Shown one piece after another: positions 13,231-19,244 of a DNA stretch of 45,744 nt. The notes under the pieces are model-generated. The model made no database searches and was not told the origin of the DNA. It saw only the letters and a program-made list of their open reading frames with translations. Source of the stretch: a virus (taxonomy: Duplodnaviria > Heunggongvirae > Uroviricota > Caudoviricetes); IMG/VR virus record IMGVR_UViG_2671180921_000030, positions 1-45,744 of that record; one strand, 5' to 3'. The first letter of the stretch is position 1; every line of letters begins with the position of its first letter. Position numbers and translations under genes: made by a program.

Positions 13231-15060
13231 CTACCTAATGATACCACGGTCAAGAGCCTGAGTAATTATTTTTCTTATTTTTATAAATTCAGGCAATTCA
13301 TTTTTAAGTCTTGCGGTCATCATTTGTTGGAGGCAAAAAATTTCCTCTGCATTTACTTCTTCTTTATCATACAGGTGTTGCGCTAATAATCTTATTTGAT
13401 TCTTATACAGTTCTGGATCATTAGAACTCCAGGTCTGTGAATCAATTATTTCTTTTTCACTTGGCGTAATTGCCTTTTCAATGAGTAATTGTTCGGGAGT
13501 ATCAAATGGTAAATACTGCACTTTATTGAATGCATACTCAAGCACTTGCCTTTTGAGTCTATTAGATTCTTGTTCATTTTTTTTGCCATTACTACCACTG
13601 GCATTGATAATTAACTCGCAACCATAATATTTGCACATTGTATTAACTAAATCAGCATCAGCAATTTCACTAATTCTTACTGGTTTTATTTTTTTGTTGT
13701 TATCACCATCAAGTAAAAACAAAATATCATTGCGTTCTACCACAGCGTAACTGGGAAGATGCTTGCTTAAAATGGTCTCCGAACCACCTGGTATATAACT
13801 TACACTAAATGATAAGCTTAATCTTTCATCATTTTTAATCGCTTTATCTATAATTGCTTTAGCTAATTTATCTTCTACAATTATTGTTTTCTTGTTAATA
13901 TCATGCCCTAGCTCTATAAAAGCTTCATCCGGTGCTATATTTTGAACTATTTTAGCTGTTTCACTCTCTTCATCAAAAACAAATAATTTAATGGCATCTT
14001 TGGGAAGAGTGTTCACAATAACAGGAGAATGGGTTGATATTACCACTTGATGTTTTTTCTGCTCAACAATAGAGTACAGAACATCCATCATCCTTTTTTG
14101 TGCACCAGGGTGAAGTGAAACTTCTGGTTCGTCAAGAAGAATTAATGAATTAGGTTTGGCCGAATAAATATTGAGTATTAGTGAAACTATTGCAAATTCA
14201 CCACTTCCAGCAAACGCTTCTGTATAGTTCAACTTATCAGTTGAAAGTAAAGCGGTTCCTCCTCTGGTTCCAAATAACCGATGCTCAAGAAATTTAATGA
14301 CTTTATATTTTTTCCCTAATATAAATGAGACGTGCTCAACTAGTTCTGGCGCCAAGGTTATATTTTTAACAATGGTTTCCGCCCCCCAGAGTCTTAAATT
14401 ACTTAGCTTTTCATCAAAAGCTTTCTTTATATATTTAGATTTGCTTCTGATATAGTCTTGCTTTGTAATTAATACACCACTCTTCTTCTTTCTTAATTTA
14501 AAATCAGAGTGATACATACATCTATCAAATGCACTTATTTCCGATCTGAAATCTAGGAAAACCAATCCCTTCTTGATTTTTTTCCATCTGGTTGCATTAC
14601 TATTAGCACCCAGATCATCCGAAATACTCTCCATGTTATCACCAACAGATGGTCGACTTGTTTCCCAATAATCGATTGTTTTCTTGGTAGCATTGATACG
14701 TGCTTGGAGTATTTCAACTAAACGGCCATCAGCATTTTTATATCCATATATATATCTAGGTTTAAGAGAACTGCCATCAGCAAGTTTTAGGTCAGGAAAC
14801 TCATCTGTTTCAGTTGTGAACCAATAACGAGTTATATTTTTACCATGTGGGCAACCAAATAGCGCTTTGATAACAGAACTTTTATTAGTTCCATTTTTTC
14901 CTACTAAAGCCGTTATAGGGAACTGAAAATCGATCCTTGCATTCTGCTCTATATTTTTAAAGTATGGAAAACGGATATGTTGTATGAATGGTTCAAATTC
15001 ACCGTTTTTTAACGCGCACTGGAGTGTTCGAATTTTGCTCTTGTATGCGGAAGTGCTCAT
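13231..15060 (-). CDS. OLD-family ABC-ATPase with C-terminal TOPRIM nuclease domain
   Basis: Walker A LVGKNGTNKSS, Walker B/D-loop LLDEPEVSLHP, H-loop ISTHSP, TOPRIM-like IIVEDK and LFLLDGDN; 23-nt gap to downstream methyltransferase. Confidence 0.75.
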   Translation of the reverse strand: MSTSAYKSKIRTLQCALKNGEFEPFIQHIRFPYFKNIEQNARIDFQFPITALVGKNGTNKSSVIKALFGCPHGKNITRYWFTTETDEFPDLKLADGSSLKPRYIYGYKNADGRLVEILQARINATKKTIDYWETSRPSVGDNMESISDDLGANSNATRWKKIKKGLVFLDFRSEISAFDRCMYHSDFKLRKKKSGVLITKQDYIRSKSKYIKKAFDEKLSNLRLWGAETIVKNITLAPELVEHVSFILGKKYKVIKFLEHRLFGTRGGTALLSTDKLNYTEAFAGSGEFAIVSLILNIYSAKPNSLILLDEPEVSLHPGAQKRMMDVLYSIVEQKKHQVVISTHSPVIVNTLPKDAIKLFVFDEESETAKIVQNIAPDEAFIELGHDINKKTIIVEDKLAKAIIDKAIKNDERLSLSFSVSYIPGGSETILSKHLPSYAVVERNDILFLLDGDNNKKIKPVRISEIADADLVNTMCKYYGCELIINASGSNGKKNEQESNRLKRQVLEYAFNKVQYLPFDTPEQLLIEKAITPSEKEIIDSQTWSSNDPELYKNQIRLLAQHLYDKEEVNAEEIFCLQQMMTARLKNELPEFIKIRKIITQALDRGIIR

Positions 15061-16520: not shown

Positions 16521-16810
16521 TGGTGAGTTTACGTAAAGCAGCGCGGGGCCAGATGTGCCAGGTCAGAATCCCTGGCTACTGCAATCACAATCCCGAAACG
16601 TCTGTGCTGGCGCATTACAGGCTGGCGGGGACGTGCGGAACAGCGACAAAACCACACGATATGCAGGCAGCGATTGCCTGTAGCTCATGCCACGATTTAA
16701 TCGACGGGCGGGTAAAAACCAGCGATTACACCAAAGAAGAATTACGCCTGATGCATGCAGAAGGTGTTTTTCGCACACAAGAAATCTGGAGAAAGGAAGG
16801 TTATTTATGA
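16520..16810 (+). CDS. YbcO-like (DUF1364) putative nuclease
   Basis: 96-aa Cys/His-rich product LRKAARGQMCQVRIPGYCNHNPETSVLAHYRL...IACSSCHDLIDGR matches recollection of DLP12 YbcO. Confidence 0.6.
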   Translation: MVSLRKAARGQMCQVRIPGYCNHNPETSVLAHYRLAGTCGTATKPHDMQAAIACSSCHDLIDGRVKTSDYTKEELRLMHAEGVFRTQEIWRKEGYL

Positions 16811-17361
16811 TTTACCCAACAAATACAGGCAAAAGCGGGGAACACCTTCGTCTCACCACGCTGGAAAGTGTCTGGATTCAGGGAAAACTGCGCATGTGGG
16901 GGCGCTGGTCGTATATTGGCGGCGGTAAGACGGGAAATATGTTCAACCAGTTGCTGACCTCTAAAAAGCTGACAAAAACGGCAATTAACGAGGCGCTCCG
17001 GAGGATGAAAAAAGCAGGTCTGGACAAACCTGAACTTGAGGCTTTTTTGCGGGATATGATCAACGGCAAGCAAAAAAGCTGGCTGGTGCATTGTACTGAT
17101 GCAGAGGCGTTATGCATTGATCGGGTGATTAGTGAAGTGCTGGCAGAACACCCAGGATTGATTTGTATCCTCCGGCAACGATATGAAGGGCGGGGGATGA
17201 CTAAGCGAAAAATGGCTGAATTGCTGAATGATTCACACCCTGAGTGGTGTTACGCCACGTGCCGTAATCGCATAGATGCGTGGTTGAAAATGGCAGAGTT
17301 TATGCTCTATCTACCGATGCGTGATGCATTCTCTTCCGGGGATCTAAAAACCGTCTGTTGA
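16807..17361 (+). CDS. Q-like late antiterminator (phage 82/21 type, tentative)
   Basis: Trimmed to MIYPTNTGKSG overlapping the upstream stop; WGRW motif; followed by promoter plus terminator as for pR'/tR'. Confidence 0.5.
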   Translation: MIYPTNTGKSGEHLRLTTLESVWIQGKLRMWGRWSYIGGGKTGNMFNQLLTSKKLTKTAINEALRRMKKAGLDKPELEAFLRDMINGKQKSWLVHCTDAEALCIDRVISEVLAEHPGLICILRQRYEGRGMTKRKMAELLNDSHPEWCYATCRNRIDAWLKMAEFMLYLPMRDAFSSGDLKTVC

Positions 17362-17387
17362 CTCAATCTGTTATCCGGGGCTATATT
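17358..17387 (+). promoter_or_regulatory. Candidate late promoter pR'
   Basis: TTGACT, 18 nt, TATATT immediately after the Q-like gene. Confidence 0.45.
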
Positions 17388-17448
17388 CCTCACGCGCCAG
17401 CAAAATCTGGCGTCGGGATTAGCACCCCGGATGTTTACGGAGCGATAT

Positions 17449-17471
17449 GAGACGCGCCCGCGTCTTTTTTT
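17449..17471 (+). terminator. Candidate tR' terminator
   Basis: GC stem agacgcg/cgcgtct followed by T7, about 60-80 nt downstream of the candidate pR'. Confidence 0.5.
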
Positions 17472-17635
17472 CATATCGTTTGCACAGTCACATTCGCGAT
17501 TTATGGCGGGCTGTGTGGGGGAGCCGAAAGGCTCGCCGGTTTCCGTACCCGGTAGTGCTAACCCCGCACAGTTCGCCACCACGATGATTAGCACCTGACG
17601 GTGGCGATAATGTCCAAATGTACGGAGTTATCGTT

Positions 17636-18217
17636 ATGACCACTCAAATCTCTGTTGAAACTCTCTCCCCGATCACCCATAACCAGATTCCTGTTATTAC
17701 CACCGAACTTTTGGCGCAGCTTTACGGCACTGAGCCGGTGCGTATTCGCCAGAATCATCATGAGAACAAAGTACGCTTCGTTGAAGGGAAACACTTTTTC
17801 AAAGTTGTTGGTAATGACCTTAAAGAATTGCGGGTCGCTTTAAACTACTCACAAAATTTGCAACCATCTTTAAGAGGGTTACAAATTTCCCCGAAAGCCC
17901 GCTCCCTCATACTCTGGACAGAACGCGGAGCAGGCCGTCATGCCAAAATGCTCGAAACCGATCAGGCGTGGGATGTGTTCGAAAGACTGGAAGACTGCTA
18001 TTTCAGACAAAAGGATCCGTCAGCGCCAGTTTCATGCCAGAAAAGTTACGACACGCGAGTTCTCTGTTATCAGCGAGGCGGTGTCACTGTTTCCACAATT
18101 CAGTTGCGGGATGATGATATTGTTATTTCCCTTGAGTCATGGCTGGAACTGGCGAGAGCCAATGGTTGGTTTGTTGTTCGCAGAGATAAACTGGTGGAAA
18201 GGCTGATGCAGCTTTAA
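17636..18217 (+). CDS. Hypothetical protein, possibly KilA-N/ORF6N-like DNA-binding
   Basis: Trimmed to MTTQISVETL; family assignment from memory only. Confidence 0.4.
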   Translation: MTTQISVETLSPITHNQIPVITTELLAQLYGTEPVRIRQNHHENKVRFVEGKHFFKVVGNDLKELRVALNYSQNLQPSLRGLQISPKARSLILWTERGAGRHAKMLETDQAWDVFERLEDCYFRQKDPSAPVSCQKSYDTRVLCYQRGGVTVSTIQLRDDDIVISLESWLELARANGWFVVRRDKLVERLMQL

Positions 18218-18313
18218 AAAAGTTCTTGCAATTTTAGCCATAAACTGCTTCAATCCCGGTACGCTTCGCAAAGCTGTATCGCGAGGCGAACCAAGCGCAT
18301 GAACTTTACCAGA

Positions 18314-18338
18314 ACCCGCCATTGAGCGGGTTTTGTTG
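18314..18338 (+). terminator. Rho-independent terminator
   Basis: Stem acccgc/gcgggt followed by a T run; closely resembles the terminator at 38554..38578. Confidence 0.45.
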
Positions 18339-18450
18339 TTTCTGGTACTGGCGAACCTGATGTTTCATTTCTGGAGCGCGATTCCTGGCGGAATACCTGG
18401 AATCGAGACATTCTGGTAAAATTGTGTTCAGTACAGGATGTGGAGGTGAG

Positions 18451-19020
18451 ATGAGAGAACTACCTAAAGTTTATTTTTTAGGAGTAGATGATGAGCTCGT
18501 CGATTATCTTGAAAAACAAGGGGAAGAGACGATACGAGAGATTCATCTTTCTAACAAAACCAATGTTGAGAATGGATACAAACTTCTGAACATTCAGATT
18601 GTTGGAATTGGCTCATCTTTTTTATTGCTGACACAGAAAACTAATTTCGATTTTCTCACCGCCGGAATTACCACATTTACATTACTATGGACATGGTGCG
18701 CCATTTACTTGGTATGTACTGGTTTATCTGTGAAGGTTAGGGGCCTGATCAATGCCCCTCCTGATCATCTATATCATGAAAAATATAAGGATATGGAGCC
18801 CTCGAGCTTTAAAATATTCGCTGATGCAGGATATTTAGGACCTGATAAGTTATTGCCGCTTATACGAAGGTATCGCCTTGTTGACTTGAGTGATACAGCA
18901 AGAGAGTTACTGTTGGAAAATGAGAAAATCCGCACGAGTCTCGATAAAGCAAGGATGTATACCATCCTTGCTCCAGTAGCTGCGATGTTTATCTCGGCTG
19001 TTTTTTTATATGTTCAATGA
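18451..19020 (+). CDS. AT-rich membrane protein moron
   Basis: Trimmed to ATG preceded by GGAGGTGAG; three hydrophobic segments; AT-rich by inspection. Confidence 0.5.
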   Translation: MRELPKVYFLGVDDELVDYLEKQGEETIREIHLSNKTNVENGYKLLNIQIVGIGSSFLLLTQKTNFDFLTAGITTFTLLWTWCAIYLVCTGLSVKVRGLINAPPDHLYHEKYKDMEPSSFKIFADAGYLGPDKLLPLIRRYRLVDLSDTARELLLENEKIRTSLDKARMYTILAPVAAMFISAVFLYVQ

Positions 19021-19150
19021 CTGAGTCGGCAGAATCTCCAACAAAAACACGACGTGTAGCAAAGTCTGCAGTACTTTGTGTTGGAGTTGGTTTTGGTGCC
19101 ACGGGTTGCTGAGGTTTATTTTCACCTTGTGGCTTGTTTTTTTCAGACAT
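18989..19150 (-). CDS. Small Pro/Gln-rich protein
   Basis: 53-aa ORF MSEKNKPQGENKPQQPVAPKPTPTQ... with AAAGAGGA upstream; convergent overlap with 18451..19020. Confidence 0.35.
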   Translation of the reverse strand: MSEKNKPQGENKPQQPVAPKPTPTQSTADFATRRVFVGDSADSVIEHIKKQPR

Positions 19151-19244
19151 AAAAATCCTCTTTGTTTGAATTGTTACTTTTGGCGATTTAACGATATCAA
19201 ACACGAGTATATACCGCCAGAAGCTTAATCTGGCACTCCATCTG

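Follow-up and report, generated by a model that had tools for sequence, protein, structure and literature searches.

A probable C4-type antisense RNA in front of an ORF6N antirepressor gene in a lambdoid prophage

We analysed a structured RNA element encoded on the plus strand of a 45,744-nucleotide (nt) stretch of viral DNA (Caudoviricetes; IMG/VR record IMGVR_UViG_2671180921_000030, positions 1 to 45,744), hereafter the window. The element lies between a Q-like antiterminator gene and the gene of an ORF6N antirepressor-like protein, and is preceded by a predicted promoter, a small RNA of the isrK family and the terminator of that RNA. An earlier note, made from the sequence of the window, had described at 17505..17580 a long-range stem that encloses a GNRA hairpin and a second hairpin and ends in GCCACCA. 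It had left open whether this was a small RNA, a leader or attenuator, or part of a Q-utilisation RNA, and had named an Rfam covariance search and covariation among homologues as ways to check it. We conclude with high confidence that the element is a C4-type antisense RNA guarding the antirepressor gene, and the core of a promoter-IsrK / C4 / antirepressor cassette homologous to immI of phages P1 and P7 and to the isrK locus of Gifsy-1. Our computations show to which family the element belongs, how it folds and covaries, where its four complementary sites lie and that these covary too, that one of them overlaps the ribosome-binding site, and what the neighbouring genes encode. The features of the locus are the following, with Rfam matches taken from a scan of the whole window at the curated gathering thresholds (GA) and open reading frame abbreviated as ORF.

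16807..17361, plus strand: Q-like antiterminator gene (Pfam DUF1133, 358 bits; a weak match to Phage_antitermQ, 27.5 bits against a cut-off of 26)
17358..17387, plus strand: sigma-70 promoter, with -35 TTGACT at 17358-63, an 18-nt spacer and -10 TATATT at 17382-87
17381-17433, plus strand: c4-a1b1 family (RF03163), 49.8 bits (GA 46.7), overlapping isrK
17394..17470, plus strand: IsrK-type small RNA, a terminated 5' operon product with the target mimics a1 and b1 (isrK family, RF01394, 74.4 bits, GA 50, full length)
17449..17472, plus strand: intrinsic terminator of IsrK, GAGACGCG-CCC-GCGTCTT followed by a T run (terminator scan); the tR' of the earlier note
17499-17583, plus strand: C4 antisense RNA family (RF01695), 78.0 bits (GA 45), E = 1e-13, model positions 1-87 of 87, not truncated
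17503..17598, plus strand: putative small ORF of 31 codons that begins with the conserved AUG at the 5' edge of C4, in the place taken by orf45 in Gifsy-1
17636..18217, plus strand: ORF6N antirepressor-like protein, 193 amino acids (aa), AnrP homologue (Pfam ORF6N, 67.9 bits)

Because the match to RF01695 covers the full model and stands beside isrK and c4-a1b1, the element belongs to the C4 family. The covariance search proposed in the earlier note thus returned a full-length hit, and the note was right that a structured small RNA other than a tRNA lies between the terminator and the next ORF; what it missed was the C4 identity. The element is a known kind of RNA with a known kind of mechanism: it is in Rfam, is annotated in the records of P1 and of the APSE phages, and has been the subject of experiments in P1/P7 and, under a different name, in Gifsy-1.

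The fold is simple and stable. The closing stem pairs GGCGGGCTGTGTGGGG (17505-17520) with CCCCGCACAGTTCGCC (17562-17577) in 16 base pairs, including 3 G-U pairs, and ViennaRNA extends it by a U17504-A17578 pair (16-17 bp in all). Inside the stem lie hairpin 1, GAGCC-GAAA-GGCTC (17521-17534), and hairpin 2, (G)CCGG-UUUCCGUAC-CCGG(U) (17535-17553), which has a 9-nt loop; a single-stranded linker of 8 nt (17554-61) joins hairpin 2 to the second half of the closing stem, and GCCACCA (17575-17581) forms the 3' end. The minimum free energy (MFE) of 17499-17583 is -49.0 kcal/mol (ViennaRNA), and the MFE structure is identical to the one described here. Every part described in the earlier note is present in the sequence. 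Dinucleotide-shuffled controls reach -30.2 +/- 3.3 kcal/mol (n=200), which gives z = -5.75, and 0/200 are as stable. When the complete 267-nt putative read-through RNA (17394-17660) is folded, the C4 domain is retained.

Homologues were collected from IMG/VR with a search pattern built around hairpin 2 and the first part of the 3' strand. Of 120 viral-contig loci recovered, 103 were true homologues, representing 52 distinct sequences, and pairs were counted in a plain MAFFT alignment with the structure of the window as reference. Standard pairs occupy 97.6% of the 1,400 pair cells, compared with 33-50% when the partners are slid by 1-3 columns. Compensatory changes on both sides were found in 13 of the 27 pairs (147 cells, counted over related sequences), among them 9 of the 17 closing-stem pairs and 4 of the 5 hairpin-1 pairs. 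Hairpin 2 is invariable in this set because the search pattern fixed it; the independently retrieved P1 sequence carries a compensated change there (GCUGG/CCAGU against GCCGG/CCGGU in the window). The observed covariation score was reached by 0 of 500 shuffles, and RNAalifold on its own arrived at essentially the same consensus structure. At the ends of the element, none of the 52 homologues departs from 'AUGG' at the 5' edge, and the CC of the tail (17579-80) shows little or no variation. A chance structure was considered as well and is ruled out by the dinucleotide shuffles together with the covariation.

Two unpaired parts of the element, the linker and the loop of hairpin 2, find complementary sites on both sides of C4. 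Here we follow the naming of the P1 GenBank record, in which a' is the C4 linker and b' the hairpin-2 loop. The two usages in the databases are reversed: in the APSE-7 record LR794146 (L001 2538-2562) the loop is called a', while in the P1 record NC_005856 (L125 356-560) it is the loop that pairs with b2, a pitfall for anyone who sets the annotations side by side.

17419-17425, plus strand: a1, TTAGCAC, exact 7-nt complement of a'; duplex -10.6 kcal/mol
17436-17441, plus strand: b1, TACGGA, exact 6-nt complement of b'; duplex -8.5 kcal/mol
17542-17548, plus strand: b', UCCGUAC, in the hairpin-2 loop, unpaired in the MFE fold; holds the anti-Shine-Dalgarno UCC
17555-17561, plus strand: a', GUGCUAA, in the single-stranded linker, unpaired in the MFE fold
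17588-17594, plus strand: a2, TTAGCAC, exact 7-nt complement of a', a few nt past the 3' end of C4; duplex -9.0 kcal/mol
17620-17626, plus strand: b2, GTACGGA, exact 7-nt complement of b' plus a G-U pair; duplex -10.4 kcal/mol

The b2 site overlaps the Shine-Dalgarno (SD) sequence GGAG (17624-27), which lies 8 nt from the ATG of the antirepressor gene at 17636. The combination TTAGCAC-N(5-35)-TACGGA occurs exactly 3 times in the 45.7 kb of the window (a1-b1, the complement of b'-a', and a2-b2), with a chance expectation of 0.04; a search across the window for further a-b site pairs that might serve as extra targets in trans gave only these three expected matches. The summed duplex energy was surpassed by only 2 of 1000 shuffled targets downstream and 5 of 1000 upstream. 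In the predicted fold of IsrK, a1 sits in the loop of the second hairpin and b1 is single-stranded. The predicted fold of the read-through RNA places b2 and the SD (17604-17636) in a local hairpin, CGAUAAUG-UCC...GGA-GUUAUCG, whose loop holds the GUAC of b2. Such a hairpin would offer b2 for loop-loop contact with b'; it is not obviously conserved in Gifsy-1.

The same correspondence between C4 and its targets extends across the family. The 52 distinct sequences carry 33 a'/b' combinations, drawn from 17 linker types and 23 loop types that have been freely re-assorted. For these 33 classes we asked how often a target site shows at least 7 nt of exact complementarity to its cognate RNA and to non-cognate RNAs, with the following result.

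SD-proximal site: cognate 88%, non-cognate 5.5%
Proximal site right after C4: cognate 94%, non-cognate 1.3%
Upstream copy, linker target: cognate 97%, non-cognate 3%
Upstream copy, loop target: cognate 67%, non-cognate 4.7%

From this contrast we take all four sites to be selected to match the two unpaired elements of C4. The positions are kept as well: the proximal target (a2) stands at the same place in 31 of the 33 specificity classes and in P1, and the SD-proximal target ends in GGA/GGAA in 27 of the 33 classes, where it lies 7-11 nt before an ATG. The gene that follows b2 across the family is either of antirepressor type (ORF6N with P22_AR_C, Bro-N, P22_AR_N or pRha) or a short ORF of about 64 aa where P1 has icd; no Pfam family matches this ORF or P1 Icd. 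The combination found in the window recurs only in near-identical copies (L015, L024, L051 and L055). The joint variation of a'/b' and their targets gives strong computational support to the pairing model developed for P1, and also supports a role of IsrK as carrier of target mimics. On a weaker reading, the mix-and-match sets of a' and b' might form an RNA 'barcode' that locks the antirepressors of co-resident prophages independently of one another.

Among the closest known systems is phage P1. In its record the order is promoters P2c4 and P1c4 (formerly P51a and P51b), a1, b1, a hairpin with a U run, C4, a2, b2 and the ATG of icd (NC_005856), and the window is colinear with it: promoter, a1, b1, hairpin and U run, C4, a2, b2/SD, gene. 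The C4 of P1 falls in the same RF01695 family (68.8 bits in P1, 78 in the window) and shares with its counterpart in the window the three-helix fold, the predicted size of 76-77 nt, an 'AU|GG' junction at the 5' end and GCC-ACC at the 3' end. In both, b' in the hairpin-2 loop faces the SD, a' lies in the linker, and the regulated gene is an antirepressor gene. C4 of P1/P7 represses antirepressor synthesis by acting on icd/ant translation and determines type-specific immunity (PMC5320573; P1 record). The two systems differ in specificity, with a'/b' being GUGCUAA/UCCGUAC in the window and CUGUCAA/UCACUAAC in P1; in the upstream a1/b1 segment, which matches the isrK model in the window and c4-a1b1 only in P1; in the promoter region, where P2c4 (formerly P51a) overlaps a C1 operator in P1 and no operator was identified in the window; and in the host element, a lambdoid chromosomal prophage compared with a plasmid prophage.

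The ends of C4 can be read in the light of P1, whose C4 is cut from a precursor by RNase P (P1 record; Hartmann 1995 as summarised in PMC5320573), is 77 nt long, begins at the G after 'AU' and ends in GCCACC (P1 record). The sequence prerequisites for RNase P are present in the window: AU|GG at 17503-06, a stem, and then A-C-C-A at 17578-81. By analogy, the mature C4 is predicted at 17505-17580/81 (76-77 nt), from the G after 'AU' to ...GCC-ACC(A), and the GCCACCA that had caught the attention of the earlier note is best understood as the acceptor-stem-plus-NCCA mimic by which RNase P excises P1 C4, neither a tRNA remnant nor noise.

Another of the closest known systems is Gifsy-1 of Salmonella Typhimurium. 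Its locus reads antQ-isrK-orf45/STnc1160-anrP-isrJ (Hershko-Shalev et al. 2016, PMC4825925), which is the same order behind a Q-type gene as in the window, with a nearly identical -35, -10 and spacer. Over 310 columns that take in IsrK, C4 and the antirepressor's first 27 residues, the mean column identity between the two DNAs is 83%. Scanned with Rfam, Gifsy-1 shows isrK, c4-a1b1 and C4 arranged alike, and its C4 match (69 bits) falls exactly on 'orf45'/STnc1160, an element that the published model does not name as C4. Compensatory mutations in Gifsy-1 (G28A/C162U and G31A/C159U) prove that IsrK pairs with the C4 region (PMC4825925). Mapped on our alignment, G28 and G31 fall in a1 and C162 and C159 in a', so that the 'helix b-I' of that paper is the a1:a' pairing. 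Supplying IsrK in trans increases the translation of anrP by a factor of more than 100, and the read-through transcript is processed to a stable RNA, STnc1160, in dependence on the isrK promoter (PMC4825925); STnc1160 and IsrK are both highly transcribed in lysogens (bioRxiv 10.1101/787010). Differences from the window are that the Q protein of Gifsy-1 (AntQ, phage 82-like) has no significant similarity to the Q-like protein of the window, that a' is ACGCCAA rather than GUGCUAA, that orf45 ends at an AUGA overlapping the anrP start whereas the window ORF stops 38 nt earlier, and that isrJ scores 100 bits in Gifsy-1 and has no match in the window at the gathering score.

Similar cassettes occur in other settings. 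The record of APSE-7, a Hamiltonella phage (LR794146), lists an isrK-family small RNA, a C4-family small RNA with a'/b' and then a Bro-N protein. In the Stx phage VT2-Sakai, isrK, c4-a1b1, C4 and ant are present and the cassette is unannotated. The genomic position varies: APSE has the cassette behind a VRR-NUC gene, and VT2-Sakai has it ahead of Q in the nin region. The antirepressor domains of both differ from that of the window. The Gifsy-1 authors draw a parallel with satellite phage P4, whose small CI RNA, as they describe it, is cut from the leader of the operon that encodes it and pairs with complementary sequences up- and downstream; they call the P4 seqA RNA a structural homologue of IsrK (PMC4825925). 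CI (seqA/seqC) works by premature transcription termination, in contrast to the overlap of b2 and SD in the window. On one further, related IMG/VR contig (L025; 1796-2260 and 8004-8178), DicF adjoins the isrK-C4 cassette and a sok antitoxin RNA lies about 6 kb off, which shows several prophage small-RNA modules on one contig.

The genes flanking C4 agree with these comparisons. The ORF6N protein belongs to PHROG phrog_2379, 'anti-repressor' (1e-92), and shares 54% identity with STM2616/AnrP of Gifsy-1 over its full length (2e-64); it is followed by genes for a membrane protein, a holin (19359), lysozyme, Rz and terminase. The Q-like protein belongs to phrog_753, 'anti-termination protein Q-like' (2e-81). 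A single promoter (17358-87) stands ahead of a1/b1, C4 and the antirepressor gene, and co-transcription is thus predicted from the sequence. This promoter agrees with the consensus at 10 of 12 positions and has a predicted start at about G17394. Most of 13 aligned cassettes, P1 included, have a TTGAC-type -35 and a TATAnT-type -10 equally distant from the a1/b1 hairpins.

Taken together, these data suggest the following course of events. Transcription would start at the sigma-70 promoter (17358-87), and most transcripts would end at the terminator (17449-72) to give IsrK, while read-through RNA would bear C4 and the antirepressor mRNA; for these steps we draw on consensus motifs and on homology. 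By analogy with P1, C4 in the read-through RNA would mimic an acceptor stem with ACCA and be cut by RNase P at U17504/G17505, yielding a stable RNA of about 77 nt. The P1 model and the covariation of the sites then suggest that b' binds b2/SD and a' binds a2, in cis or in trans, which would block ribosome entry on the ORF6N gene; the same block would fall on transcripts of an incoming phage of the same a'/b' type, so that lysogeny and immunity would be kept. Finally, IsrK, carrying a1 and b1, may act as a decoy that titrates C4 or may open a cis a1:a' pairing, either of which would turn antirepressor translation on, as Gifsy-1 genetics and the covariation both suggest. At the window locus we infer from these relatives that the cassette is expressed, that RNase P cuts C4 out, that C4 represses and that IsrK acts as a decoy; the experimental proof was obtained in homologues, namely processing and icd/ant repression in P1, and a1:a' pairing, trans-activation by IsrK and a stable STnc1160 in Gifsy-1.

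Several points weigh against this interpretation. Each interaction between C4 and a target is only 6-7 bp long and therefore probably depends on presentation in loops, and perhaps on Hfq. The homologues are phylogenetically related, so that fewer independent events lie behind the covarying cells than their counts suggest. The window is without icd, and C4 stands directly before the ORF6N gene, compared with icd-ant1/ant2 in P1. The authors of the Gifsy-1 study account for their data by orf45 translation and by the long mRNA adopting alternative structures in cis, rather than by a trans-acting processed C4, and constitutive STnc1160 failed to counteract IsrK in Gifsy-1 (PMC4825925); since they favour a cis model, the role of trans-repressor in IsrK-type cassettes is extrapolated from P1. 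Translational coupling of the Gifsy-1 type, for its part, could not work alike here, since the small ORF ends well before the antirepressor ATG. In addition, RefSeq annotates no RNA at the locus in E. coli strain 300709, where a 321-bp stretch is 100% identical to the window. Sequence similar to this stretch is found in 623 of 5,426 complete E. coli genomes, and in the best twelve E. coli matches listed only the two flanking coding sequences are annotated beneath it.

Among the alternatives, the one that fares best places the regulation mainly in cis. The element would then be a peptide-coding structured leader: a1:a' pairing would silence the mRNA, IsrK would open it in trans, and translation of the ORF from AUG-17503 would activate the antirepressor gene. 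Gifsy-1 genetics and native gels speak for it (PMC4825925). So does the reading frame itself, the AUG at the 5' edge of C4 being invariant in the 52 homologues and its frame stop-free through C4 in 50 of 52, compared with 27-28 of 52 for the other two frames. In 23 of 33 classes it also continues, in register, into the downstream gene, although by independent length classes only about 6 of 11 spacings are in frame with that gene, which is not convincing. The open AUG frame could reflect dual coding like that of Gifsy-1 orf45, or else a preference of RNase P for A-2 and U-1 in the leader, which would explain the invariance of these two positions equally well. Weighing on the other side, the 31-codon ORF stops at TGA 17596-98, leaving 38 nt to the ATG and 22 nt to b2, which makes coupling by termination and re-initiation unlikely; no excess of variation at third codon positions was found in the frame of the small ORF (mean entropy 0.46, 0.78 and 0.66 at positions 1, 2 and 3), and P1 has a stop at codon 15 of the AUG frame. 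The substitutions follow the pattern of a paired RNA, as the 13 compensatory pairs attest, and the predicted precursor fold keeps C4 separate, with a1 in a hairpin loop of its own. We therefore regard a mainly cis-acting leader as unlikely, while noting that it is compatible with the C4 explanation and does not exclude it.

The earlier note had offered, as one option among several, that the element may be part of a Q-utilisation RNA, and had labelled the upstream hairpin tR'. Put fully, the promoter at 17358 would be the late promoter PR', IsrK a 6S-like RNA, the hairpin at 17449-72 the terminator tR', and C4 an attenuator or processing signal of the Q-read-through transcript. The cassette does begin at the stop codon of the Q-like gene (TGA 17359-61), which overlaps the -35. 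No other sigma-70-like promoter was detected on the plus strand between the Q-like gene and the holin gene at 19359: the promoter of the cassette was the only plus-strand promoter-like site in 16800-19800, with none in 18200-19800, in a crude consensus search that could overlook a real PR'. Three plus-strand terminator-like sites also lie on the way (17449, 18310 and 19244). The last two are hairpins at 18310-18335 and 19244-19265, between the antirepressor gene and the holin gene; the former occupies the position of isrJ in Gifsy-1, with no isrJ match there.

Against a dedicated Q unit stands the portability of the cassette. It occurs behind an unrelated Q in Gifsy-1 with a near-identical -35/-10 spacer, upstream of Q in the nin region of VT2-Sakai, and behind AlpA- or NinH-like genes elsewhere, and in P1 the corresponding promoter is P1c4. 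Because the promoters of the window and of Gifsy-1 are nearly identical despite unrelated Qs, and the upstream genes vary across cassettes, promoter and terminator are parts of the cassette, and a Q-specific binding element in the promoter is unlikely, as the cassette travels behind unrelated genes. The earlier note correctly saw a terminator just upstream of the element (stem 17449-17466 and U run in the terminator scan); this hairpin is the terminator of IsrK, forming the 3' hairpin of the isrK model, and tR' is therefore an unproven label. The covariation of the a and b sites, moreover, accounts for the unpaired elements of C4 without Q. We consider it very improbable that the element is part of a Q-utilisation unit. 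A combined arrangement, in which the IsrK-C4 cassette doubles as head of the late operon and the DUF1133 Q-like protein lets transcription pass the IsrK terminator and both later terminator-like sites, is also doubtful. If it were true, Q would set the ratio between terminated IsrK decoy and read-through C4/antirepressor/late mRNA, and the lock of antisense and anti-antisense RNAs would couple antitermination to the release of the antirepressor, perhaps with cross-induction of co-resident prophages.

Finally, a tRNA, a tRNA remnant or a tRNA-like integration or priming element, suggested by the acceptor-like stem followed by ACCA, by the frequency of tRNAs after Q in lambdoid phages and by a tRNA-Arg gene a few hundred bases downstream of the cassette in Gifsy-1, can be dismissed almost outright: ARAGORN finds 0 tRNA genes in the 45,744-nt window, in line with the failure of the earlier note to build a cloverleaf, Rfam gives no tRNA or tmRNA match (RF00005 included) at the gathering score against 78 bits for C4, the 16-17 bp stem with two hairpins has no D, anticodon or T arms, and the conserved CC of the tail is explained by RNase P substrate mimicry.

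Other features of the window deserve mention. On the minus strand at 13231-15060, in the early/nin region of the prophage, a 609-aa ABC/OLD-type ATPase is encoded (Pfam AAA_21 and AAA_15, about 1.8e-20), whose best PADLOC matches are HEC-04 (2e-34), ATPase-Toprim_I-B, AriA and PtuA; it may be a gene for defence against phages that the prophage carries as a moron. A 300-aa ORF at 21068-21970 (minus strand), which separates the lysis genes from the gene of the small terminase subunit, has no Pfam or PADLOC match and may also be a moron. At 463-607 and 2169-2347 there are full-length Rfam matches to SraC/RyeA and SdsR/RyeB, which are small RNAs of the core genome, and to RalA, the antitoxin small RNA of the RalR/RalA type I toxin-antitoxin pair. 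Given these matches, the window seems to run from the chromosomal ryeA/ryeB locus into a ralA-bearing prophage.

For annotation, the value of these results is that a 321-bp stretch holds two small RNAs and four short pairing sites. They also link two literatures that do not cite each other's terms, since by Rfam Gifsy-1 orf45/STnc1160 is of the C4 family and the compensatory mutants of Gifsy-1 lie in a1 and a'. The RNAs and sites of this stretch probably control the synthesis of the antirepressor and, through it, prophage induction and superinfection immunity.

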